49,628 bases of DNA from Escherichia phage JMPW1. The translations under genes and the position numbers were made by a program. The notes beneath the pieces are model-generated. The model was not told the origin of the DNA. It made no database searches and saw only the letters and a program-made list of their open reading frames with translations. Positions 1 through 49,628 of this stretch are shown piece after piece (within the stretch, counting starts at the first letter, position 1; each line of letters opens with the position of its first letter). The stretch is taken from the sequence record NC_041874.1; one strand, given 5' to 3'.

Positions 1-102
1 ATTGCATGGTTTGCAACAGTTGGTTGATTTGTTGCTTAGATTGCAATGATTGTGAGAGGGGGGGATCTAGTGTTGCCCGGTTCGCCTGGTAGTCATCTCC
101 AT

Positions 103-121
103 TTTTAGCAAAAAGTGCTAT
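103..121 (-). promoter_or_regulatory. Conserved box, minus orientation (reads ATAGCACTTTTTGCTAAAA on - strand), at left genome end
   Basis: Plus-strand TTTTAGCAAAAAGTGCTAT matches the box family found at about 25 gene boundaries. Confidence 0.4.
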
Positions 122-136
122 CGATTACACTTTACC

Positions 137-165
137 TTGTCACAGATGTAATATTTGTCTAGAAT
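137..165 (+). promoter_or_regulatory. Sigma70-type promoter TTGTCA-17 bp-TAGAAT
   Basis: -35 TTGTCA at 137-142, 17-nt spacer, -10 TAGAAT at 160-165, read directly. Confidence 0.5.
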
Positions 166-225
166 CGCACTTGTGACAAAATTACACACTGTGACGCCTC
201 TAAATATACATATAGATATATGTAT

Positions 226-242
226 CTATATAATATATATAG
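226..242. repeat. 17-bp AT-rich motif CTATATAATATATATAG, copy 1 (exact second copy at 30755-30771)
   Basis: Identical 17-mer read in both AT-rich control regions. Confidence 0.7.
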
Positions 243-524
243 TGTTTTCTTTATTTATATATATAGATAATTATATTGTAATAGTTGTGTATAGTTGTCT
301 TACATTGTCTAGCGTACTGTTGGCATATTTCTATCTGCATGTTTATATATACAGTACTTTTTTGAGAGCTATATATTTCTATAGTGACTCTAGACAGCTA
401 GACAAATGTTACACAGCTTAATATCGGCTCGCAGTCATTGACAGCTCTGTATCGCACTGTCACAATGTCAATTGTTGACACATTATGACGCCATTTACAC
501 ACGAATAGACAAAGAGGATATATT

Positions 525-1040
525 ATGAGCAATACCAATCAGGAATTAAAAATCACCGATATGATTCGACTAACCTGCGATGCAATGTATCGCGACAAAG
601 GCATGAATGAGTTCTCTTTCGTGGCTGATGATATGGCCCTCGAGGCCGCGCGATTCTACTTCCGTGACCAGGAGGTAAGTGATAGCGATCTTGAATCTGC
701 CGCTGCCGGATGGGTGGACCAGAACCAGGGTGAGGTGGAGAAGCGATTCAAGTCTGCTTTCATTACGCCAATCATTACCCGGCACTTTTGCAAGTATGGC
801 AAGGTGGCAAAGGTGAAGGTAGGCCGGAATGACGCTGCAATCACAATGATAACGGTTATCGTTACCGACGAAGAGATTCCCGTGAAGAAGCGCCGCAGTC
901 GGAAGAAAGTTAGCCTGGCCGATTGCCTGGATTCGTTTGTGGTTGATGTGGGTAAACTGGCTGATAGCGAATTGATGACTCGTGACGTAAACGAGATCGT
1001 TCGCCAGATGAAGGCGCATATCGAAAAGTGTGGACTGTAA
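525..1040 (+). CDS. hypothetical early protein (171 aa)
   Basis: ORF with RBS AAAGAGGA 9 nt upstream of ATG; first gene after left control region. Confidence 0.6.
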   Translation: MSNTNQELKITDMIRLTCDAMYRDKGMNEFSFVADDMALEAARFYFRDQEVSDSDLESAAAGWVDQNQGEVEKRFKSAFITPIITRHFCKYGKVAKVKVGRNDAAITMITVIVTDEEIPVKKRRSRKKVSLADCLDSFVVDVGKLADSELMTRDVNEIVRQMKAHIEKCGL

Positions 1041-1054
1041 GCACTGAGCGGTAA

Positions 1055-1104
1055 ATAGCACTTTTTGTTAAAACCGGATCGGGATAACGCGGTATAGTTA
1101 TCCC
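1055..1104 (+). promoter_or_regulatory. Early promoter cassette: box + inverted repeat GGGATAAC/GTTATCCC enclosing -10 TATAGT
   Basis: Box ATAGCACTTTTTGTTAAAAC at 1055-1074; IR 1081-1104; -10 at 1093-1098. Confidence 0.6.
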
Positions 1105-1129
1105 ATCAACAACGAATGAGAAAACGAAG

Positions 1130-1324
1130 ATGGAAACGCAAATTGACGTAGTGGTTGTTCAGCGAGACTCAACTCATGAAAAGGGTCTGTTTAAGAAGGG
1201 AACGGAAATCACGATCGACCTTGAGGATATGGTTGCTTATCACTCTGGACTTACCTGGAACGTGGTGCGCGTAGGCAGCGACTATAAACTCAAAGGCTTT
1301 AACACTTACTTTGCAGAGGCTTAA
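1130..1324 (+). CDS. hypothetical small protein (64 aa)
   Basis: ORF downstream of cassette with RBS GAGAAAACGAAG. Confidence 0.5.
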   Translation: METQIDVVVVQRDSTHEKGLFKKGTEITIDLEDMVAYHSGLTWNVVRVGSDYKLKGFNTYFAEA

Positions 1325-1326
1325 TC

Positions 1327-1797
1327 ATGACAACCATTACCGTATTTCTGGCTAAAGATGAGATTGATGGCGAAATGTCATTCTTCGCATTTGAGCACAA
1401 AACCGGATCGCACTGGCATATGTATAGCCGCTACACGGTTATCGATATCAACTCATACCGCGCAGGCTCACTTACTGAAAAGCTGGGTTGCTTCATTGGA
1501 GCTATCAAGGTGAACAATGGCTGCGAGTGGGCAGATGAGCACGAAGAGCGCCGCATGTGCAATATGATTAACCCGGTCTATCTTGAGTCGTTCGAGCTTG
1601 ATGCTGATGTGAACATTAAGGTGAGAAAGTCTGGTGAGTTATTGCCAGGGATGCGTGTGCTGACTGGTTACTCGGGCCGTAAGGTGTGGCGCACCGTATC
1701 GAAGATTCGCCAGCGTTCTGCAACATGCTACAGCGTATTCTTTGAAGATGGCTGGAATATGATGTCCGGTAGTGAGGTGAAGTATCTCACCAAATAG
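1327..1797 (+). CDS. hypothetical protein (156 aa)
   Basis: ORF; its TAG stop is the TAG of the next box. Confidence 0.55.
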   Translation: MTTITVFLAKDEIDGEMSFFAFEHKTGSHWHMYSRYTVIDINSYRAGSLTEKLGCFIGAIKVNNGCEWADEHEERRMCNMINPVYLESFELDADVNIKVRKSGELLPGMRVLTGYSGRKVWRTVSKIRQRSATCYSVFFEDGWNMMSGSEVKYLTK

Positions 1798-1843
1798 CAC
1801 GAATTGTTAAAACCGGATCGGGGTATCTTGCTATAGTTACCCC
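1794..1843 (+). promoter_or_regulatory. Early promoter cassette: box + IR GGGGTA/TACCCC enclosing -10 TATAGT
   Basis: Box ATAGCACGAATTGTTAAAAC 1794-1813; IR 1820-1843; CCAATCAGAGGA RBS follows. Confidence 0.6.
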
Positions 1844-1875
1844 ATCGAAACGAGATACCAATCAGAGGAATAACC

Positions 1876-2106
1876 ATGTCAATCGTCAAGAACCAGCAAG
1901 CAATCGATTAAACCAATAACAACCGCTTTGCTATTTTCATCACATCGATAGGTCGCCGATTTGCAGTCAAAGCCGTTCCGGGTGGATACAAAACCTACAT
2001 GGAAGATAAAGGAAAGTGGGTGTGGTGCGAAAACCTTGCAAACTTCCTAGTCTGGAATGCAGACCTCCAGGGCTTTGATGATATCAGCACCTTAATTGAG
2101 GAATAA
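1876..2106 (+). pseudogene. Small gene with in-frame TAA at codon 12 (1909-1911); frame continues open to 2106
   Basis: ATG 1876 sits behind a full cassette and RBS; same frame reopens after TAA and runs to TAA at 2104-2106. Confidence 0.3.
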
Positions 2107-2112
2107 ATAATT

Positions 2113-2340
2113 ATGCCACGTTACAATAAACAGACTAAACTCACCCGCGTAAACGGGCACATGATTCCGGCTGAATCCACTCACTACGCAATGGGCGCAA
2201 AGCACGGAGTCTATTTCAAGTGGCGCGGTCAATGGAACTTCACGGCGGTTAGTAATTTCTACATGCGCGTCCCAGGTATTGACCCGCAGACGGTCGTAGA
2301 GGACTCAATCGGCAACAACAAGATCGAGGTGCTAAAATGA
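2113..2340 (+). CDS. hypothetical protein (75 aa)
   Basis: ORF with RBS GAGGAATAAATAATTATG. Confidence 0.5.
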   Translation: MPRYNKQTKLTRVNGHMIPAESTHYAMGAKHGVYFKWRGQWNFTAVSNFYMRVPGIDPQTVVEDSIGNNKIEVLK

Positions 2341-2447
2341 ACTTCAATACAATTGCTTTATGGTCTGCCGTCTGGTTCTTCTGTATGGGTCATGTCATGG
2401 TTGGAATCGTAGTTATGCTGCTACTGTGTGCGGGAGCGTTCGAATGA
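2337..2447 (+). CDS. putative small hydrophobic membrane peptide (36 aa)
   Basis: ATG overlaps upstream stop (ATGA); translation MNFNTIALWSAVWFFCMGHVMVGIVVMLLLCAGAFE is one TM-like segment. Confidence 0.35.
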   Translation: MNFNTIALWSAVWFFCMGHVMVGIVVMLLLCAGAFE

Positions 2448-2617
2448 TGCGCATTCTGATTTGCATGATGGCGGCGGTCGCACTGGCTATCCTGGTAGTG
2501 TCCGGCTGCGGAGAGGCCAAAGAGCGATGCCATGAAACCGGAAACCAGGTTACTACTTTCGTGATGGTTGGCAACGTATTGCTACCAATCACATCAAATG
2601 AAATCACTTGCGAATAG
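2444..2617 (+). CDS. putative small lipoprotein (57 aa)
   Basis: Signal-peptide-like N-terminus ending in lipobox LVVSGC; start overlaps stop of preceding peptide. Confidence 0.4.
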   Translation: MMRILICMMAAVALAILVVSGCGEAKERCHETGNQVTTFVMVGNVLLPITSNEITCE

Positions 2618-2626
2618 GATGTTAAA

Positions 2627-2818
2627 ATGGCTGATTTTATGCACCAAATGATTGCAGTATTCAAAGGTAGTGATGACCAGGAGGTGAAAGAGTGCTTTAC
2701 TGTAGACAAGCCTTATAGCGCATCGCTAACCAGCTTCGGGAATATCTCATTGCTTGATGATAACGGCGACCCCTGGGTATTCGACGAAGACACTGATTGC
2801 TTCGAAATTAAAGAATAG
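2627..2818 (+). CDS. small highly acidic protein (63 aa)
   Basis: ORF rich in D/E; stop TAG shared with next box. Confidence 0.5.
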   Translation: MADFMHQMIAVFKGSDDQEVKECFTVDKPYSASLTSFGNISLLDDNGDPWVFDEDTDCFEIKE

Positions 2819-6252: not shown

Positions 6253-6864
6253 ATGGATAAAATTACCATTTGGGGCCAGACAATCAACCTGTTTCTCGGC
6301 ACGCGCCGCGTAGCAATCTTTGACTTTGATGGAACACTTAGCGATGGATCTGGTCGACTTCACCTGCTACCTACAAAGGATTTGCACTTAACTGAAAGCT
6401 GGTCCGAGTTTAACCGCGCGGCAATATTTGACAACCCTATCCAAAGCACGATCGATGTGATGAACTCTATGTATGCCGCTGGTCATCATGTGATCATTTT
6501 AACCGGGCGAAGTGATGAGGTGCGTTACGCATCTGAGTTGTGGCTTAAGCATCACGGCGCTCGATATGATTACCTGATTATGCGACCATACACCGATAAC
6601 CGGAAAGACACAGTAATGAAAGAAGAGGCGGTGCGCGCGATCGGCATTGATAACATTCTGGCGGCCTGGGATGACTCACCGCAAATTATTCCATTATTCC
6701 GCTCACTTGGAATAACCACTTACGCTGTAGTTGACTATGGCGATAAAGTTCACGATCATTTAAAATCTCACGGGGTAGATGAGGTTTGCAATCATGAACC
6801 ATCTGAGCCGCTACCGCCATTTGGTGAGAAAATTTGCATTAAGTGCAAGGAGTTATTGAAGTGA
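6253..6864 (+). CDS. HAD-superfamily phosphatase (nucleotidase-like) with C-terminal CxxC
   Basis: HAD motif I FDFDGTL near N-terminus; later ILTGRSD and WDDS motifs. Confidence 0.6.
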   Translation: MDKITIWGQTINLFLGTRRVAIFDFDGTLSDGSGRLHLLPTKDLHLTESWSEFNRAAIFDNPIQSTIDVMNSMYAAGHHVIILTGRSDEVRYASELWLKHHGARYDYLIMRPYTDNRKDTVMKEEAVRAIGIDNILAAWDDSPQIIPLFRSLGITTYAVVDYGDKVHDHLKSHGVDEVCNHEPSEPLPPFGEKICIKCKELLK

Positions 6865-9372: not shown

Positions 9373-9391
9373 ATAGCACTAAATGTTAAAC
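9373..9391 (+). promoter_or_regulatory. Box (late-type context: no hairpin, immediately upstream of RBS)
   Basis: ATAGCACTAAATGTTAAAC preceded by -10-like TAAAAT. Confidence 0.45.
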
Positions 9392-9406
9392 AAAGAGGAT
9401 GGATTT

Positions 9407-9931
9407 ATGAGTGAACCTAAGAACGCCCCCGTAGTCCAGGGAGGTAATTTCAAAGAGCTATACAAGAAAAAGTTCGGCACTGTTCTTGCTAAAAACCGGG
9501 CAATGACGCCTGAGCAACTATTCGATCTGTCAGTTAAGTATTTCGAATGGGCTGAGGACAACGCAATCAAGGCGTCAGAATCAGCCAGCTTTCAGGGTGG
9601 CGTTTATGAATCGCTAGTTCATAAGCCGCGAGTCTTCACCTGGACCGGATACCGACTATTCATCGGTGCAAGCGAGGCAGCAATCATTAAGTGGAAGCGA
9701 GAGGAAGAATACAGTGAGGTTATGGAGTTTGTGGAATCGGTAATCAACGAGCAAAAATTCCAGCTTGCCGCCAACGGTGTTATTAATGCCTCCTTTATCG
9801 GTAAGGATCTCGGAATCGATAAGCCAGCCTCAATCAATATCGAAAACTCGTCAGCTTCCGCATCGACAGTAGTCGCCACCACTGAGGATGCAATGAAAGA
9901 GGCAGTAAATAGCATTCTTGACATGCTTTAA
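9407..9931 (+). CDS. terminase small subunit (putative)
   Basis: Position directly upstream of large terminase; start at ATG 9407 after AAAGAGGA. Confidence 0.5.
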   Translation: MSEPKNAPVVQGGNFKELYKKKFGTVLAKNRAMTPEQLFDLSVKYFEWAEDNAIKASESASFQGGVYESLVHKPRVFTWTGYRLFIGASEAAIIKWKREEEYSEVMEFVESVINEQKFQLAANGVINASFIGKDLGIDKPASINIENSSASASTVVATTEDAMKEAVNSILDML

Positions 9932-9970
9932 CGTTACGGGCGCGCGAGCGCCCACATGGGAGACTTAATC

Positions 9971-11539
9971 ATGATTCAATGGGAAGACCTTAACGCAACG
10001 CAGAAGTTAGCGATCAAGAAAATGAGCGAGGCCAATTTCGAAAAAATGATTCGGATCTGGTTCCAGCTTATGCAGGCGCAGCAGTTCCAGCCTAACTGGC
10101 ATCACCTTTACCTATGTCACGAAGTGGAGGAAATAATTGCAGGCCGACGCGGCAACACTATCTTTAACGTCACGCCTGGTTCCGGTAAAACTGAAGTGTT
10201 CTCAATTCACCTTCCGGTATACGCAATGCTCAAGTGTAAAAAGGTGCGAAACCTTAACGTGTCGTTTGCCGACAGCTTGGTTAAGCGTAACAGTAAGCGT
10301 GTCCGTGAGATTATCAGCAGCAACGAATTTCAAGAGCTATGGCCTTGCAAGTTCGGCACATCGAAAGACGAGGAGATGCAGGTTCTTAACGAAGATGGAA
10401 AGGTTTGGTTTGAGTTGATATCCGCAGCGGCTGGAGGTCGTATTACAGGTTCGCGTGGTGGCTACATGACGCCGGGATTCTCCGGTATGGTAATGCTCGA
10501 CGATATCGACAAGCCTGATGATATGTTCTCAAAGGTTAAGCGTGAGCGTACGCATATGCTACTGAAGAACACCATTCGCTCGCGCCGTATGCACAACGAA
10601 ACGCCAATCATCGCAATTCAGCAGCGACTACACGCACAGGATTCAACATGGTTCATGATGAATGGCGGGATGGGGATCGAGTTTGATCAAATCTCAATTC
10701 CGGCACTGGTGACTGAAGAATACGGAAAGACGCTTCCTGACTGGTTACAACCATACTTCGAGCGCGACGTTTTGTCGTCTGAGTATGTAGAATTGGATGG
10801 AGTTAAGCATTACTCATTCTGGCCCAGCAAGGAAAGCGTTCACGACCTGTTAGCTCTTCGAGAAGCGGACCAGTATACCTTTGACTCTCAGTATCAGCAG
10901 AAGCCGATCGCGCTTGGTGGCTCCGTGTTCAATTCGGAGTGGTGGACTTATTACGGCAGCAGCCTTGACGCTGATGAGCCGGATCCTGGTAAATATGATT
11001 ACCGTTTTATCACCGCTGATACCGCTCAGAAGACAGGTGAGCTAAACGACTACACAGTCTTTTGTTTATGGGGTAAGAAAAACGATAAGGTTTACTTTAT
11101 CGACGGCATTCGCGGAAAGTGGGAAGCGCCGGATATGGAGAAGCAATTTACCGCTTTCGTCAACCAAGCATGGAGGCACAATAAATCAATGGGGGTGCTT
11201 CGTAAAATCTATGTGGAAGATAAGGCGAGTGGTACGGGCTTAATCCAGAATCTAAGGAAAAAGACTCCGATATCCATCACTCCATTGCAGCGTAACAAAG
11301 ACAAAGTTACCCGAGCTATGGATGCCCAGCCAGTTATTAAAGCCGGGCGCGTGGTTCTGCCAGAAGAGCACCCCATGCTTGCGGAAATTATCGCGGAACA
11401 TAGCGCGTTCACTTACGATGACACGCATCCGCACGACGATATTGTCGATAACTTCATGGACGCTGCAAACATTGAACTACTGACAATTGACGATCCTATC
11501 GAGAGAATGAAGCGACTCGCCGGGATGGTTAAGCGGTAA
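9971..11539 (+). CDS. terminase large subunit
   Basis: Walker A VTPGSGKTE, Walker B-like MVMLDDID, size about 520 aa, followed by portal. Confidence 0.8.
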   Translation: MIQWEDLNATQKLAIKKMSEANFEKMIRIWFQLMQAQQFQPNWHHLYLCHEVEEIIAGRRGNTIFNVTPGSGKTEVFSIHLPVYAMLKCKKVRNLNVSFADSLVKRNSKRVREIISSNEFQELWPCKFGTSKDEEMQVLNEDGKVWFELISAAAGGRITGSRGGYMTPGFSGMVMLDDIDKPDDMFSKVKRERTHMLLKNTIRSRRMHNETPIIAIQQRLHAQDSTWFMMNGGMGIEFDQISIPALVTEEYGKTLPDWLQPYFERDVLSSEYVELDGVKHYSFWPSKESVHDLLALREADQYTFDSQYQQKPIALGGSVFNSEWWTYYGSSLDADEPDPGKYDYRFITADTAQKTGELNDYTVFCLWGKKNDKVYFIDGIRGKWEAPDMEKQFTAFVNQAWRHNKSMGVLRKIYVEDKASGTGLIQNLRKKTPISITPLQRNKDKVTRAMDAQPVIKAGRVVLPEEHPMLAEIIAEHSAFTYDDTHPHDDIVDNFMDAANIELLTIDDPIERMKRLAGMVKR

Positions 11540-16081: not shown

Positions 16082-16132
16082 TTAACAAAAAGTGCTATTA
16101 TTGAAGCCGTGAACATAATCACGGCTTTTTTA
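16082..16132 (+). promoter_or_regulatory. Reverse-orientation box + IR AGCCGTGA/TCACGGCT enclosing CATAAT, followed by T-run (promoter/terminator composite before capsid gene)
   Basis: TTAACAAAAAGTGCTAT 16082-16098; hairpin 16105-16126; T6 16126-16131. Confidence 0.5.
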
Positions 16133-25883: not shown

Positions 25884-28800
25884 ATGATTCAAAAAGTGAT
25901 AAGTGGATCTAAAGGCGGCTCGCCTAAGCCTCATAATCCAGTTGAGATGGAAGACAATCTAATCTCAATCAACAAAATCAAGATCCTGTTAGCTGTATCT
26001 GATGGTGAAATTGACGAAACATTCAGCCTGAAGCAGTTGATGTTTAACTCAGTCCCGGTGCAAAACGAGGATGGATCGTTCAACTTCGAAGGGGTAAAGG
26101 CTGAGTTCAGGCCGGGAACTCAGACGCAGGAATACATCAAGGGCATGGAGGATAGTTCCAGCGAGGTAACTGTAAATCGTGAGGTTACTACCGATAACCC
26201 ATACACGATCTCAGTGACCAATAAAACACTATCGGCAATACGCATCAAAATGTTCATGCCTCGCGGTGTACGAATTGAAAGTAACGGTGATAAAAATGGC
26301 GTAAGAGTTGAGTATGAGGTGCAACAAGCTGTTGATGGCGGTTCGTTTGAGACTGTTCTTACTGACGTAATTGAAGGCAAAACAATGTCAGGTTACGACA
26401 GAAGTCGACGTGTAAACCTGCCTAGCTTTAACAACCAGGTAATATTCAGAGTTGTTCGAAAGACTCCAGACTCTAACGACTCTAACGTTGTTGATGCGAT
26501 CCAGGTAAAGAGCTATGCCGAGGTGATTGATGCCAAATTCCGTTACCCTCTGACAGGTCTTCTTTTCGTCGAGTTCGACTCGAAGATGTTCCCAAACCAG
26601 TTACCTACGATCTCAATTCGTAAGCGCTGGAAGATTGTAAACGTTCCATCAAACTACGATCCGGAATCACGAACCTACAACGGCAATTGGGATGGGACTT
26701 TCAAGAAGGCGTGGACTAACAACCCGGCATGGGTTCTATACGATCTGATGATTAATCAGCGCTACGGTCTGGATCAGAAGGAGCTTGGAATCTCCGTCGA
26801 TAAATGGGCGCTCTACGAGGCCGCGCAATATTGCGATCAGATGGTTCCTGATGGGAAGGGCGGGACGGAGCCTAGATACCTTTGCGACGTGATAATTCAG
26901 TCACAGACTGATGCGTACAAGGTGATTCGAGATATTTGCTCAATATTCCGTGGCATGAGCTTCTGGAATGGTGAAAGCATCTCGGTAATCATCGACAGAC
27001 CGCGTGAGCCTGCGTACATCTTCACTAACGACAACGTTGTTAATGGTGACTTCTCCTATACGTTCGCAAGCGAAAAGAGTATGTACACGACGTGTAACGT
27101 GATGTTTGACGATGAACAAAACATGTATCAACAGGACGTTGAGCCAGTATTCGATCGCGAGGCGACTCTGCGGTTCGGTAATAACGTAACCAGCATTACA
27201 GCGATAGGTTGCACGCGTCGAAGCGAGGCTAACCGACGAGGGCGATGGATTCTGAAGACCAACCTTCGCAGCACTACGGTAAACTTCGCGACCGGACTGG
27301 AAGGGATGATCCCGACAATCGGAGATGTTGTGGCAATAGCTGATAACTTCTGGTCAAGTAACTTGACGATGAACCTATCAGGGCGCTTGCTCGAAGTGTC
27401 TGGAAGTCAGATTTTCTTGCCGTTCCGTGTGGATGCACGCGCGGGTGACTTTATTATCGTAAATAAGCCAGATGGCAAGCCCGTGAAGCGCACAATCTCA
27501 AGCGTTAGTGCGGATGGCAAGACTATAGAGATTAACATCGGCTTTGGCTTTCCTGTAAAGCCTAACACGGTATTCGCTATCGACAGAACCGACATTGCGT
27601 TACAGCAGTACGTCGTGACAAAAATCGATAAGGGCGATGATGACGAGGAATTTACCTACAAAATCACGGCGGTGGAGTACGATCCTAACAAGTACGATGA
27701 GATTGATTACGGAGTTAACATCGACGACAGGCCGACGAGCATCGTTGAACCAGATCAGATCCCTAGACCGGAAAACGTGCAAGTGTCCTCAGAGTCGAGA
27801 ATCGTCCAGGGGATGAGCGTAGAAACGATGATTGTTAGCTGGGATAAAGTGCCGTACGCAGTTTTCTATGACGTACAGTGGAGAAAGGATAACGGCAACT
27901 GGCAAAACGTTCCGCAGACAGCAAACAAAGAGGTTTATGTTGAAGGGATTTACGCTGGCAACTATCAGGTTCGCGTTCGCTCCGTAGCTGGTTCCGGTAC
28001 GACTTCAGGATGGTCAAATGTCGTAGCTGCGACGCTGACGGGCAAACAAGGTGAGCCGGGTGGACCGATTAACCTTACAGCTACGGATGATGTTGTTTTT
28101 GGTATCCGTACAAAATGGGGGTTCTCTGATGGTTCTGGAGATACGGCCTATACAGAGTTGCAACAGTCACCAGATGGAACAGTGGATAACGCAAGTTTGC
28201 TTTCTTTGATTCCGTACCCGCAGCATGAGTATTATCACTCACCGATGCCTGGAGGGAATATTGTTTGGTATCGTGTAAGGACGGTTGATAGGATCGGTAA
28301 CGTGTCTCAGTGGACTGATTTTGTCAGAGGTATGGCATCAACAAACGTTGACGATATCATTGGGGAGATTTCTGTCGATATCGAAAACTCGCCGGGTTAC
28401 GAGTGGCTTGTTGATAACGCAACCGACAACGCGGCGCAGAACGCAGCTAACGCAGAGGCAGCAATAGAAAACGCGCTCGCCAATGACAAAGACGCGATCT
28501 ACATGAAGAAGGAGAACGGAAAACGAAAAGCTGAGTACACGAAATCACTGAAACTTATTGCTGATGAGACGCAGGCGCGAGTGACGGCGATCGAGCAATT
28601 GAAGGCAAGTTTTGGCGATCAGATTAGCGCTAGCAACAGCGAATTGCGTGAAGTTATCGCAACTGAGACTGGAGCGCTATCGCGTGAAATTGACCAACTC
28701 AGGGCAGAGATTGGTGATGATATCCAGGCAAGTTTGACCGATATCAGAGAGGCTATAGCAAACGAGACTGAGGCGAGAACGCAAGCTGACTTGTCGTTAA

Positions 28801-29303
28801 GCGCGAGGCTTGGGAATAATGAGGCAGCACTTTCTCAAAAACTTGATTCGTGGAGCAATGCAGATTCGACTGGTGCAATGTACGGCGTCAAGCTCGGTCT
28901 GAAGTATAACGGCCAAGAATACAGTGCAGGCATGGCTATGTCTCTGATTGGTTCCGGAGCTGCGGTTAAGGCGCAGATTTTGTTTGAGGCATCACGATTT
29001 GCCATCATGAATGGAATGAATGGTCAGACTCAGTACCCATTCGTTGTTGAGAATGGCCAGGTTATTTTAAGTAGCGCGATTATCAAGAACGGATTCATCA
29101 CTAACGCAATGATTGGAAACTTCATCCAGTCGAATAACTATGTATTTAACCAGTCCGGATGGAGGCTTGACAAGGGTGGAACATTCGAAAACTACGGAAG
29201 TGACGGTGAGGGTGCAATGAAGCAAACTAATACCACAATATCTGTTAGGGATGCGAGTGGTCGCCTGAGGGTTCAGATTGGCAGGTTGACTGGTTCATGG
29301 TAA
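25884..29303 (+). CDS. central tail fibre / host specificity protein J-like
   Basis: 1139 aa, last gene of M-L-K-I-J order. Confidence 0.8.
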   Translation: MIQKVISGSKGGSPKPHNPVEMEDNLISINKIKILLAVSDGEIDETFSLKQLMFNSVPVQNEDGSFNFEGVKAEFRPGTQTQEYIKGMEDSSSEVTVNREVTTDNPYTISVTNKTLSAIRIKMFMPRGVRIESNGDKNGVRVEYEVQQAVDGGSFETVLTDVIEGKTMSGYDRSRRVNLPSFNNQVIFRVVRKTPDSNDSNVVDAIQVKSYAEVIDAKFRYPLTGLLFVEFDSKMFPNQLPTISIRKRWKIVNVPSNYDPESRTYNGNWDGTFKKAWTNNPAWVLYDLMINQRYGLDQKELGISVDKWALYEAAQYCDQMVPDGKGGTEPRYLCDVIIQSQTDAYKVIRDICSIFRGMSFWNGESISVIIDRPREPAYIFTNDNVVNGDFSYTFASEKSMYTTCNVMFDDEQNMYQQDVEPVFDREATLRFGNNVTSITAIGCTRRSEANRRGRWILKTNLRSTTVNFATGLEGMIPTIGDVVAIADNFWSSNLTMNLSGRLLEVSGSQIFLPFRVDARAGDFIIVNKPDGKPVKRTISSVSADGKTIEINIGFGFPVKPNTVFAIDRTDIALQQYVVTKIDKGDDDEEFTYKITAVEYDPNKYDEIDYGVNIDDRPTSIVEPDQIPRPENVQVSSESRIVQGMSVETMIVSWDKVPYAVFYDVQWRKDNGNWQNVPQTANKEVYVEGIYAGNYQVRVRSVAGSGTTSGWSNVVAATLTGKQGEPGGPINLTATDDVVFGIRTKWGFSDGSGDTAYTELQQSPDGTVDNASLLSLIPYPQHEYYHSPMPGGNIVWYRVRTVDRIGNVSQWTDFVRGMASTNVDDIIGEISVDIENSPGYEWLVDNATDNAAQNAANAEAAIENALANDKDAIYMKKENGKRKAEYTKSLKLIADETQARVTAIEQLKASFGDQISASNSELREVIATETGALSREIDQLRAEIGDDIQASLTDIREAIANETEARTQADLSLSARLGNNEAALSQKLDSWSNADSTGAMYGVKLGLKYNGQEYSAGMAMSLIGSGAAVKAQILFEASRFAIMNGMNGQTQYPFVVENGQVILSSAIIKNGFITNAMIGNFIQSNNYVFNQSGWRLDKGGTFENYGSDGEGAMKQTNTTISVRDASGRLRVQIGRLTGSW

Positions 29304-35263: not shown

Positions 35264-35301
35264 ATAGCACTAATTGCTAAACGCTGATTTTATCATTGTG
35301 C
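35264..35301 (-). promoter_or_regulatory. Box in leader of tail fibre gene
   Basis: ATAGCACTAATTGCTAAAC 35264-35282 plus GTGCTAT at 35295-35301; minus-strand -10-like GATAAAAT. Confidence 0.45.
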
Positions 35302-36340: not shown

Positions 36341-36793
36341 TTAACTAAAAATGCTATTGGTCGTTCCGATATCTTCCTTCTTCACGACGCGCATAAATTT
36401 CTTGTTCTTGCATCGCTTCTCAAGGCACTTGCCGTTACCGTCAAACTTCAGGTCGAATCGCAACCATGCGGCACGAAATCCTTTGCACCCCTGTCGGCGG
36501 TAAGCGCGATGCGCAGCTTCAGCGCCTTGCCATGAAATCATATTTCGATCTTTCCAGCCTTGCACCGTCTGATTGCTAACTTTTAGAGCCTTTGCGCAGG
36601 CCGCAGGGCCGCCGTAATATTCGATAAGAGCATCAAGTCGCGCTCGCAGTCCGGCGCGTGTTTCTTCTTTATGAATATAGAACCCGCAACGCTGTCGAGG
36701 CTTTTTATCTTTACCGCGCCGTGTTCCGTTGTTACCATTGATGTGACGTTTATCGATTTTACCAGTTGATTCTGCGATACGTTGAATACTCAT
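36341..36793 (-). CDS. putative helix-turn-helix DNA-binding regulator
   Basis: HTH-like AACAKALKVSNQTVQGWKD; basic protein in divergent replication control region. Confidence 0.4.
   Translation of the reverse strand: MSIQRIAESTGKIDKRHINGNNGTRRGKDKKPRQRCGFYIHKEETRAGLRARLDALIEYYGGPAACAKALKVSNQTVQGWKDRNMISWQGAEAAHRAYRRQGCKGFRAAWLRFDLKFDGNGKCLEKRCKNKKFMRVVKKEDIGTTNSIFS
36342..36358 (-). promoter_or_regulatory. Box, minus orientation, upstream of primase
   Basis: Plus-strand TTAACTAAAAATGCTAT; overlaps stop of regulator gene. Confidence 0.4.
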
Positions 36794-36861: not shown

Positions 36862-36886
36862 ACAACGATTCAAAGGATTAATAGCC

Positions 36887-48570: not shown

Positions 48571-49257
48571 TGCGATCGCTTTGAAAAATCCACGAGGAGA
48601 TAAGGAACGTATCAGCTTCGTTTTGGCAGACTTGCCGCCCAGCTTGTTTTGCTGTGCAGAGTACCCGTCATGCAGGTTTACAGGCTTCCTTTCTGGCATG
48701 ACAAAGTCGTCCGAAGTCCAAAGACAAGTTTTCTTCGGGTAAGCATCGCGCGGCGCAATATACATCGGGAACCAGGGGTGTGCGTCATTCTCAGGAAGAT
48801 AGCCGCCATACTCCCAGGGATTGAAAGTGTGGTCAGCCTTTCGCCAGGCTGATGACAGGACGCTAACCGGATTCTCAATGATGTAAGTCACACCCAGGCT
48901 ATCACCGATGTTCGCGGCAATCCGGGCGGTGGCAACAGCTTTCTCCTGGAATAGCGGATCACGTTTACGCTTGCTGGCAAAGTGTCGAGCACCACTAACG
49001 GCCAGGTCAGTGCACGGCGGGAAGGCCATAATGAAATCCGGCTTGCCATACACACCCGCGATCGCATCACGTTCGAACGTTTCATCAATGAACACGTTCA
49101 CATACTCAATGTTGGGATGCTCTACCCGGGCATTGTACTTTGCATAATCTCCGTGATCGGCTCCGTCAAAGTTGAAGCACATCACTTTATGACCTTGCTT
49201 TGCCAGTTCATGACCAGCCAGGCCCGAGCCGTCGAATAGTGACCAGATTAATTTCAT
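48553..49257 (-). CDS. compact DNA (cytosine-5)-methyltransferase-like protein (234 aa)
   Basis: Motif I-like LFDGSGLAG, PC motif FPPCTD, ENV-like IIENPV in canonical order; short for a C5-MTase. Confidence 0.5.
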   Translation of the reverse strand: MKLIWSLFDGSGLAGHELAKQGHKVMCFNFDGADHGDYAKYNARVEHPNIEYVNVFIDETFERDAIAGVYGKPDFIMAFPPCTDLAVSGARHFASKRKRDPLFQEKAVATARIAANIGDSLGVTYIIENPVSVLSSAWRKADHTFNPWEYGGYLPENDAHPWFPMYIAPRDAYPKKTCLWTSDDFVMPERKPVNLHDGYSAQQNKLGGKSAKTKLIRSLSPRGFFKAIANSTFC

Positions 49258-49466
49258 TTCGTTACCTCCTGGAAAACAGTTTGTCCGCTATTGGTCAGGA
49301 AGCGCCCGATCTTATTCATTGACCGGAACACGCCGATCTGATTCTGATGATTGTCAGTCGCGAAGTAACCGCCATCAATAAGGTAGATTTCATACACTGA
49401 TTGATTCGTGAAGCTGTCAGTGCTGACGCTAACACATCGTACGGTACATTCAAATTCTGGTTCCAT
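49254..49466 (-). CDS. hypothetical protein (70 aa)
   Basis: ORF with CCAATCAGAGGA RBS, first gene of right-hand minus-strand block. Confidence 0.5.
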   Translation of the reverse strand: MEPEFECTVRCVSVSTDSFTNQSVYEIYLIDGGYFATDNHQNQIGVFRSMNKIGRFLTNSGQTVFQEVTK

Positions 49467-49524
49467 TGCCTGAGTCCTCTGATTGGTTGATGTGATGAAT
49501 CATACCCTGCCGACCTGGCTGAGT

Positions 49525-49543
49525 CGTTAGCAAAAAATGCTAT
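49525..49543 (-). promoter_or_regulatory. Box, minus orientation, upstream of right-hand minus-strand block
   Basis: Plus-strand TTAGCAAAAAATGCTAT. Confidence 0.5.
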
Positions 49544-49589
49544 TCCAATAATTGCTCATTATTCCATCAATAGCGGAATAGGTGGAATA
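49541..49589. repeat. Cluster of four GGAATA/TATTCC hexamers near right genome end
   Basis: TATTCC at 49541 and 49560, GGAATA at 49575 and 49584. Confidence 0.5.
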
Positions 49590-49628
49590 ATTCTGATTGC
49601 GATTGATTGCAAATGATGAAACGTGATT

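Follow-up and report, generated by a model that had tools for sequence, protein, structure and literature searches.

The DNA analysed here, the complete record NC_041874.1 of Escherichia phage JMPW1 (49,628 nucleotides, hereafter the window), is, judged from its sequence, a complete and circularly permuted T1-like (Tunavirus) genome opened at base 1 of the T1 reference. The region in which its last base adjoins its first is firmly placed as the pac region of the phage, while the exact cut base within it follows from homology rather than from reads of JMPW1. On balance, it is probable that the pac cut lies between bases 69 and 70, that a phased array of GATTG/TTGCA motifs serves as the loading site of the small terminase subunit (TerS), and that a cluster of TATTCC/GGAATA hexamers further to the left forms an operator-like array at a leftward promoter, P_L. 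By homology, the locus is the T1-family pac region, already known from T1 genetics, from annotation and from read mapping in the Tunavirus vB_EcoS_Chapo; the phased array, the hexamer module and the layout of a family repeat plus a -10 element are refinements of this known system. The coordinates of the features are collected in Table 1.

Table 1. Features in and around the pac region of JMPW1, with the terminase genes, the candidate regulator gene and the family repeats (positions in the window).
Feature	Position	Strand	Remarks
P_L, -10-like hexamer	49499..49504	-	TATGAT; read from sequence; predicted start near 49492; gene starts at 49466
21-nt family repeat, copy at P_L	49527..49543	-	ATAGCAYnnnTTGnTAA; plus strand TTAGCAAAAAATGCTAT; upstream element of P_L
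Four-hexamer array	49541..49589		TATTCC, N13, TATTCC, N9, GGAATA, N3, GGAATA; operator-like; about -44 to -92 of P_L
GATTG/TTGCA array, left part	49594..49628	+	strand-specific repeats, continuing over the artificial junction
GATTG/TTGCA array, right part	1..52	+	palindrome TTGCA-TGGTT-TGCAA (2-16, inverted repeat I6) and GATTGCAATGATTG (39-52)
G7 homopolymer	58..64	+	5 nt upstream of the inferred cut
Inferred pac cleavage	69..70	+	between GGGGGGGATCTA and GTGTTGCC; by homology to Chapo; packaging rightward
Imperfect inverted repeat	75..88		CCCGG-TTCG-CCTGG; just inside the packaged end; perfect in T1, ACCAGG-TTCG-CCTGGT
21-nt family repeat, second copy	105..121	-	plus strand TTAGCAAAAAGTGCTAT; orphan; right border of the conserved block
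Sigma-70-like promoter	137..165	+	TTGTCA-17-TAGAAT; rightward early transcription; consensus match alone, 10/12
Three-hexamer array	6685..6714		ATTATTCC, ATTATTCC, N8, GGAATA; inside the polynucleotide kinase gene (6253-6864)
TerS, P22 gp3-type	9383..9931	+	Pfam PF16677 GP3_package, E 8.4e-10; PHROG 606 terminase small subunit, E 8e-61
TerL	9956..11539	+	Pfam PF17289 Terminase_6C, E 8.9e-15; 55-68% identical to annotated TLS and Rtp TerL
Xre/lambda-repressor-type HTH regulator (T1 gp23 homologue)	36341..36793	-	PHROG 2856 transcriptional regulator, E 2.8e-76
Family repeat sites, plus strand	1055, 1794, 2815, 4102, 5649, 6169, 7542, 36806, 39315	+	
Family repeat sites, minus strand	45973, 46473, 46989, 48105, 48569, 49543	-	

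In a sequence search, the last 429 and the first 600 bases of the window matched T1-like phages, with 100% identity in phi2013 and 98.6-100% identity in IME167 and Henu5_2 over the parts present in their records. In phi2013, the last base of the window is record position 48775 and the first is 48776, and the same junction is continuous in IME18, Eco_BIFF, pSf-2, the Sfin phages and many other independent records; therefore, the two ends are neighbours on a circular map and the sequence contains no terminal repeat. In addition, the window ends coincide base for base with those of the phage T1 reference NC_005833, and authors of related genomes orient their sequences to T1 and report circular permutation with no fixed or defined termini (PMC13164509; PMC7471380). 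Thus, since the junction is contiguous in relatives, the ends match those of T1 and related genomes are oriented to T1, the window ends are a convention and not termini, and the assembly is that of a circularly permuted genome.

The cut position is taken from Chapo, whose record start was aligned to T1 and in which identical ends in about 20% of the reads at that place put the pac cut at 68/69 (PMC7471380). In an alignment of Chapo, T1 and the window, this position falls between window bases 69 and 70, and the independent SH2 record begins at window base 70. The G7 run just upstream of the cut is the sole G or C run of at least six in the window, and corresponds to G6 in T1 and Chapo; the initial annotation had counted it as G8 at 55-62, a reading that the sequence corrects to seven bases at 58-64. 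In the Rtp-like phage MSK, a forward PhageTerm peak at 36,862 is separated from the conserved 17-nt element on its left by about 150 nt, the matching distance in the window being 154 nt. The pac end of TLS was placed in the homologous region by restriction analysis (PMC11447400), and the ends of two Webervirus records, K7 and P7a, differ by 3 nt, lying after TTGCATA and after the AAT that follows it, at the aligned position of the Tunavirus cut. Some further records have their break at neighbouring bases (Shfl1 at 54/55, IME167 and Henu5_2 at 89/90, IME347 about 16 nt rightward of the cut), which may reflect an imprecise cut or arbitrary ends. A search for contigs ending at the cut, made with a conserved 34-mer just to its right, gave one internal match in the metagenome scan and none in the genome scan, none of the Logan, ENA and NCBI contigs with the first rightward gene started at the cut, and several publications on T1-like and Webervirus phages mention PhageTerm results without coordinates. 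The terminase would most likely make its first cut at 69/70, five bases past the G7 run, with headful packaging then proceeding rightward.

The junction sits in about 690 bp of non-coding DNA that separate the leftward from the rightward early operon. Within the 1.3 kb around it, the non-coding block from 49526 to 122 is the best conserved part, with a mean pairwise identity of 0.75-0.96 among nine tunavirus-like sequences, and in the same nine sequences the flanking genes are less conserved (0.7-0.8 for the methylase gene and 0.3-0.5 for the first rightward gene). At each edge of the block stands a direct copy of TTAGCAAAAARTGCTAT (49527-49543 and 105-121). The imperfect inverted repeat at 75-88 is highly conserved in tunaviruses (0.91 mean pairwise identity). 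In single-strand folding, its energy is ordinary, the z-scores of the hexamer segment (-2.25) and of the array segment (-2.72) are modest, and the cut segment has no notable z-score; a hairpin role is accordingly not invoked. The first leftward gene, at 49254-49466 on the minus strand, encodes 70 amino acids (PHROG 16851, unknown function) and occurs in only some tunaviruses; in those that lack it, the conserved promoter block is followed directly by the methylase gene or by another small gene.

Between the last hexamer and the cut lie 108 bp (49590-49628 and 1-69), in which GATT occurs seven times against 0.69 expected, GATTG five times against 0.2 expected and TTGC six times. Every one of these motifs is on the plus strand, the minus strand having none (AATC is absent), and the TTGC starts are spaced 10, 23, 9, 21 and 9 nt apart. 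The homologous stretch of Webervirus has seven GATT, spaced 10, 11, 20, 10, 21 and 19 nt apart, and those of MSK and TLS have five and nine, respectively, so that a strand-specific enrichment of motifs with a spacing of about 10 bp is seen in four Drexlerviridae lineages. Its last motif stops 17 nt short of the inferred cut, and the whole array is on the unpackaged side. Its parts had in fact been noticed in the initial annotation, which described GATTGCGATTGATTGCAAATGATG and a left end with ATTGCATGGTTTGCAA and GATTGCAATGATTG, all of which are present, at 49595-49618, 1-16 and 39-52, respectively. However, the end-to-end similarity that was read from them does not hold as such: a repeat comparison of both ends found no direct terminal duplication in the window but only a shared motif of 8-12 nt, which represents two members of the GATTG/TTGCA array on either side of an artificial junction. 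The shared GATTGCAA motifs, then taken as elements of a packaging site, do belong to an array that is credible as a pac recognition element, a role that we infer.

The genome encodes a T1-type TerS and TerL, and its TerS is about 98% identical to another Tunavirus TerS, 49-51% identical to that of Webervirus, 50% to that of TLS and 52% to that of Rtp. With its place on the unpackaged side, its end 17 nt short of the cut and its family-wide occurrence, which parallels that of a TerS conserved at about 50%, the GATTG/TTGCA array would most likely be the TerS loading site. The approximately eight direct, roughly helically phased motifs would load a small terminase ring of the gp3 type. In the literature examined, no description of this phased array was found, nor any experimental definition of the sequence recognised by the terminase in a T1-like pac.

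To the left of the array lies P_L, for which both the -10 element and the transcription start are predictions. A -10-like hexamer (TATGAT, TATAGT, CATAAT or TATTAT) is present at the same position in Tunavirus, Badaguanvirus, Webervirus, TLS and Rtp/MSK. The repeat copy upstream of it is conserved in Tunavirus, Webervirus, TLS and Rtp/MSK, and Webervirus, Badaguanvirus, TLS and Rtp/MSK all retain the arrangement of repeat plus -10. On the opposite strand, TTAGCAAAAARTGCTAT reads ATAGCAYTTTTTGCTAA, which matches the 21-nt repeat consensus aaATAGCACnnnTTGnTAAAA published for TLS and also reported in T1 and Rtp, its function being listed as open (PMC11447400). In the copy read from 49543 to 49527, the -10 follows 22-23 nt downstream and the ATG lies 77 nt from the first base (usually about 76), while the copy read from 121 to 105 fits the consensus and has neither a -10 nor a gene downstream.

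The window contains 19 copies of this family repeat, with the form ATAGCAC(TTT/GAA)TTG(C/T)TAAAA across sites. At 15 of the 19, a -10-like hexamer (TATAGT, TATGAT or similar) is found about 22 nt downstream, followed on the same strand, about 30 nt past the -10, by a ribosome binding site and a start codon; a canonical -35 is absent, and because of this absence a scan for consensus promoters gave no site at P_L. Four orphan copies, at 121-105, at 16098 and 19860 (minus strand) and at 35264 (plus strand), have neither a -10 nor a gene, and two of the orphans stand antisense between late structural genes. The repeat plus -10 looks like a phage-specific class of promoter, in which the repeat would serve as an activator site or else as a -35/UP element with unusual spacing. 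Compared with the 21-nt repeats of TLS and T1-like phages, the 17-nt copies at 49527-49543 and 105-121 match the same consensus, and the element is associated with promoters genome-wide and is not specific to pac. These repeats were not among the observations of the initial annotation, and no description of the layout of repeat plus -10 as a promoter was found in the literature examined.

The four hexamers on which the initial annotation centred are present at 49541-49546 and 49560-49565 (TATTCC) and at 49575-49580 and 49584-49589 (GGAATA). Their symmetric arrangement holds for the mirror orientation, two TATTCC being followed by two GGAATA, but not for the spacing, as the starts are 19, 15 and 9 nt apart. 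The first hexamer, at 49541, overlaps the 5' end of the family repeat at P_L, and the array contains the inverted repeat I5 (ATTATTCCATCAAT / ATAGGTGGAATAAT). The window has two places at which one hexamer, counted with its complement, is present in four non-overlapping copies within 50 bp, against a mean of 0.01 such clusters per genome in 200 runs of first-order Markov simulation; the other of the two, CCATTC/GAATGG four times within 50 bp at 29009-29056, lies inside the large tail fibre gene (25884-29303). The hexamer array is conserved in Tunavirus, Badaguanvirus, Webervirus and Hanrivervirus, although in the IMG/VR loci the search pattern itself, through ascertainment, accounts for part of the conservation seen in the first two hexamers. 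With Webervirus, the blastn match is limited to a hexamer block of about 80 nt with about 80% identity, the rest of the intergenic region being unmatched, and in Hanrivervirus the array is fully symmetric, [TATTCC N3 TATTCC] N8 [GGAATA N3 GGAATA], and adjoins the family repeat of P_L. The distance from the hexamers to the -10 of P_L is 35-37 nt in three genera, and the sequence between them is not conserved. In TLS and Rtp/MSK, the array is absent from the homologous place, yet the cut is at the homologous position.

Exactly where T1-like phages have their hexamers, TLS carries two tandem TAGACCGATTGGTCTA palindromes (885-925 of the TLS piece compared), which points to a modular exchange of an operator cassette beside the same promoter repeat. 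In the unrelated 52-kb myovirus vB_EcoM_4HA13, an array [TATTCC N3 TATTCC] N8 [GGAATA N2 GGAATA] stands 4 nt from the -35 of a TTGACA-18-TATAAT promoter; an extra GGAATATTGGAATAAT pair is found 40 nt off, near an anti-restriction gene (10400-10520 of the piece compared). Among the promoters of the window, no other carries a hexamer array, the second array being intragenic, and a consensus sigma-70 scan found nothing inside the hexamers. In this second array, within the polynucleotide kinase gene (pnk), the hexamers use the rare codons GGA ATA. IME347 (Badaguanvirus) has three hexamers at the same spot of pnk, TATTCC N8 GGAATA TT GGAATA (6491-6518 of the piece compared), written through different codons and residues, and Webervirus pnk has no hexamers (GGT ATT); the comparison suggests DNA-level selection for a second binding site.

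Owing to their position at P_L, their absence in TLS and Rtp/MSK, the lack of any tracking with TerS and their occurrence at the 4HA13 promoter, the hexamers are most likely an operator-like array at P_L for a candidate DNA-binding protein. They would form a separate module at the far edge of the conserved block, directly upstream of P_L, on which a putative dimeric or tetrameric protein would control this promoter, and they are probably not a packaging signal. The host factors DnaA, IHF, Fis, CRP, RcsAB, NarL, CytR and SlyA were considered, and none is known to fit the hexamer layout. Speculatively, the HTH regulator encoded at 36341-36793 is a candidate for the hexamer-binding protein. In a comparison of five sequences only, the gp23-type recognition helix has the form S-x-Q-x-V-Q/N-x-W in three lineages with the hexamers, whereas TLS and one Rtp-like phage have a different one, and the overall identity of the gp23-type regulator does not covary with the hexamers. 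It is a tentative possibility that the hexamers are the operator of a regulator, perhaps of this gp23-type Xre protein, which would gate P_L beside pac, would be shared by several Drexlerviridae genera and an unrelated coliphage, and would have a second site embedded in the codons of pnk. If true, this operator and the phased GATTG/TTGCA array would together make the T1-family pac a composite locus, a stretch of 230 bp over which terminase loading and early transcription either compete or cooperate. In the literature examined, no description was found of the hexamer operator module or of its patchy distribution.

Alternatively, the hexamers themselves could be the recognition element of TerS, a distal 'pacL' that would, together with an A-tract, position the terminase 108 bp from the cut. 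They are indeed situated on the unpackaged side, no more than about 110 bp away from the inferred cut, they belong to the best conserved non-coding block, and it is precisely a block of about 80 nt around them, about 80% conserved, to which the match between Tunavirus and Webervirus is limited. The pac and cos sites of P1, SPP1 and lambda (cosB) also use short repeated or inverted motifs, at comparable distances. However, TLS and Rtp/MSK cut at the homologous place without the hexamers, and in no part of the protein is the TerS of Webervirus (49-51%), which has them, closer to that of the window than those of TLS (50%) or Rtp (52%); TerS covariation with the hexamers was thus negative, with no sub-region tracking them. 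Moreover, the array is also found at the consensus promoter of 4HA13 and inside pnk, and what is conserved across genera is its spacing of 35-37 nt to the -10 of P_L. We therefore regard a TerS site at the hexamers as unlikely, and of the packaging-site reading in the initial annotation it is the region that stands, by its homology to the T1 ends and the Chapo cut carried over to 69/70, while TerS binding at the hexamers is its improbable part.

The repeats could also belong to replication, with the array, the hexamers or both acting as iterons of an origin, the AT-rich block at 190-290 as its unwinding element, and pac merely adjacent. This block, filled with palindromes (ATATAGATATATGTATCTATATAATATATATAG and others), has an identity of 0.80-0.87 among tunaviruses, has a counterpart in Webervirus, TLS and Rtp, and could be an element of DNA unwinding or bending. 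A secondary citation reports that the ATATA repeats of T1 have been considered in relation to the pac site. On either side of the block (125-190 and 380-480) are lineage-specific inverted repeats, with TGTAATATTTGTCTAG at 147-162 and CTAGACAAATGTTACA at 398-413 being 94% complementary, and the flanks also carry GTGACA/TGTCAC motifs. Phage T1 has CGATTA(A)C repeats at the matching places instead, and this difference amounts to a swap of operator-like sites between close relatives. Direct, helically phased repeats beside a conserved AT-rich block are what an origin would offer, no defined T1-like origin was found in the literature examined, and the intragenic position of the second hexamer array recalls the intragenic origin of phage lambda. 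Nevertheless, terminase loading would predict an array placed like this one, on the unpackaged side and with its end 17 nt from the mapped cut. No gene resembling an initiator was identified, and more than 120 bp, with promoter-like sites among them, separate the AT-rich block from the cut. An origin at this place is accordingly judged improbable, and the array is retained as the candidate TerS loading site.

It is very improbable that the window ends are physical termini or the boundary of a collapsed direct terminal repeat; the initial annotation had offered the boundary of a terminal redundancy as one reading. The T1 reference annotates bases 1..2800, from the homologous base 1 onward, as a repeat_region, but this 2.8-kb repeat is the terminal redundancy of headful packaging and not a fixed direct repeat. 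The proposal fails on the contiguity of 49628 and 1 in phi2013 and many other independent assemblies and on the circular permutation that authors report; furthermore, the read-mapped cut is at 68/69 in Chapo and not at base 1, and no terminal sequence is duplicated in the window. Least probable of all is that the motifs are functionless products of chance or composition, since, short as they all are and AT-rich as several of them are, clusters of this kind number 0.01 per simulated genome and the motifs are conserved in four genera while their flanks diverge.

T1-like phages are common contaminants of laboratories and fermentations, generalized transducers and candidates for phage therapy, and the location of their pac has been known since the 1980s. 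The result is mostly a confirmation of known biology and of modest interest. What it provides is a base-level map, with the promoter, the family repeat, the hexamer operator, the phased array, the G run and the cut, by which the questions of the TerS site and of the role of the repeats become testable. For annotators, it implies that the record ends of T1-like genomes are to be read as conventions and not as termini.

Among known systems, the pac site of P1 consists of clusters of TGATCA/G hexamers on both sides of the cut, under the control of Dam methylation. The window resembles it in having clustered hexamers near a pac cut, but these hexamers lack GATC, lie on the left side only and 108 bp from the cut, and recur as an array at a promoter in an unrelated phage; the site is not of the P1 type. 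In SPP1, pac (pacL, pacC and pacR) overlaps the small terminase gene, and TerS is of another family. Short boxes on the unpackaged side, a cut tens of base pairs off, a conserved segment on the packaged side and headful packaging are common to both, whereas the pac of JMPW1 is 9.3 kb from terS, in a region of divergent early promoters, and is paired with a TerS of the P22 gp3 type. The operator of HipB, an HTH dimer of the Xre/HipB type, is TATCC-N8-GGATA. The inner palindrome of the hexamer arrays, TATTCC-N8/9-GGAATA, has half-sites one base longer, is accompanied by extra half-sites and stands upstream of a promoter; the likeness is one of resemblance only. The closest comparison is with the pac of T1 and the cut of Chapo, to which the locus is homologous base for base, sharing the G run and then AT(C/T)TA, the cut and GTGTT. 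Terminase type, headful packaging and terminal redundancy are the same, nothing essential differs, and JMPW1 is in this respect another isolate of the same system.
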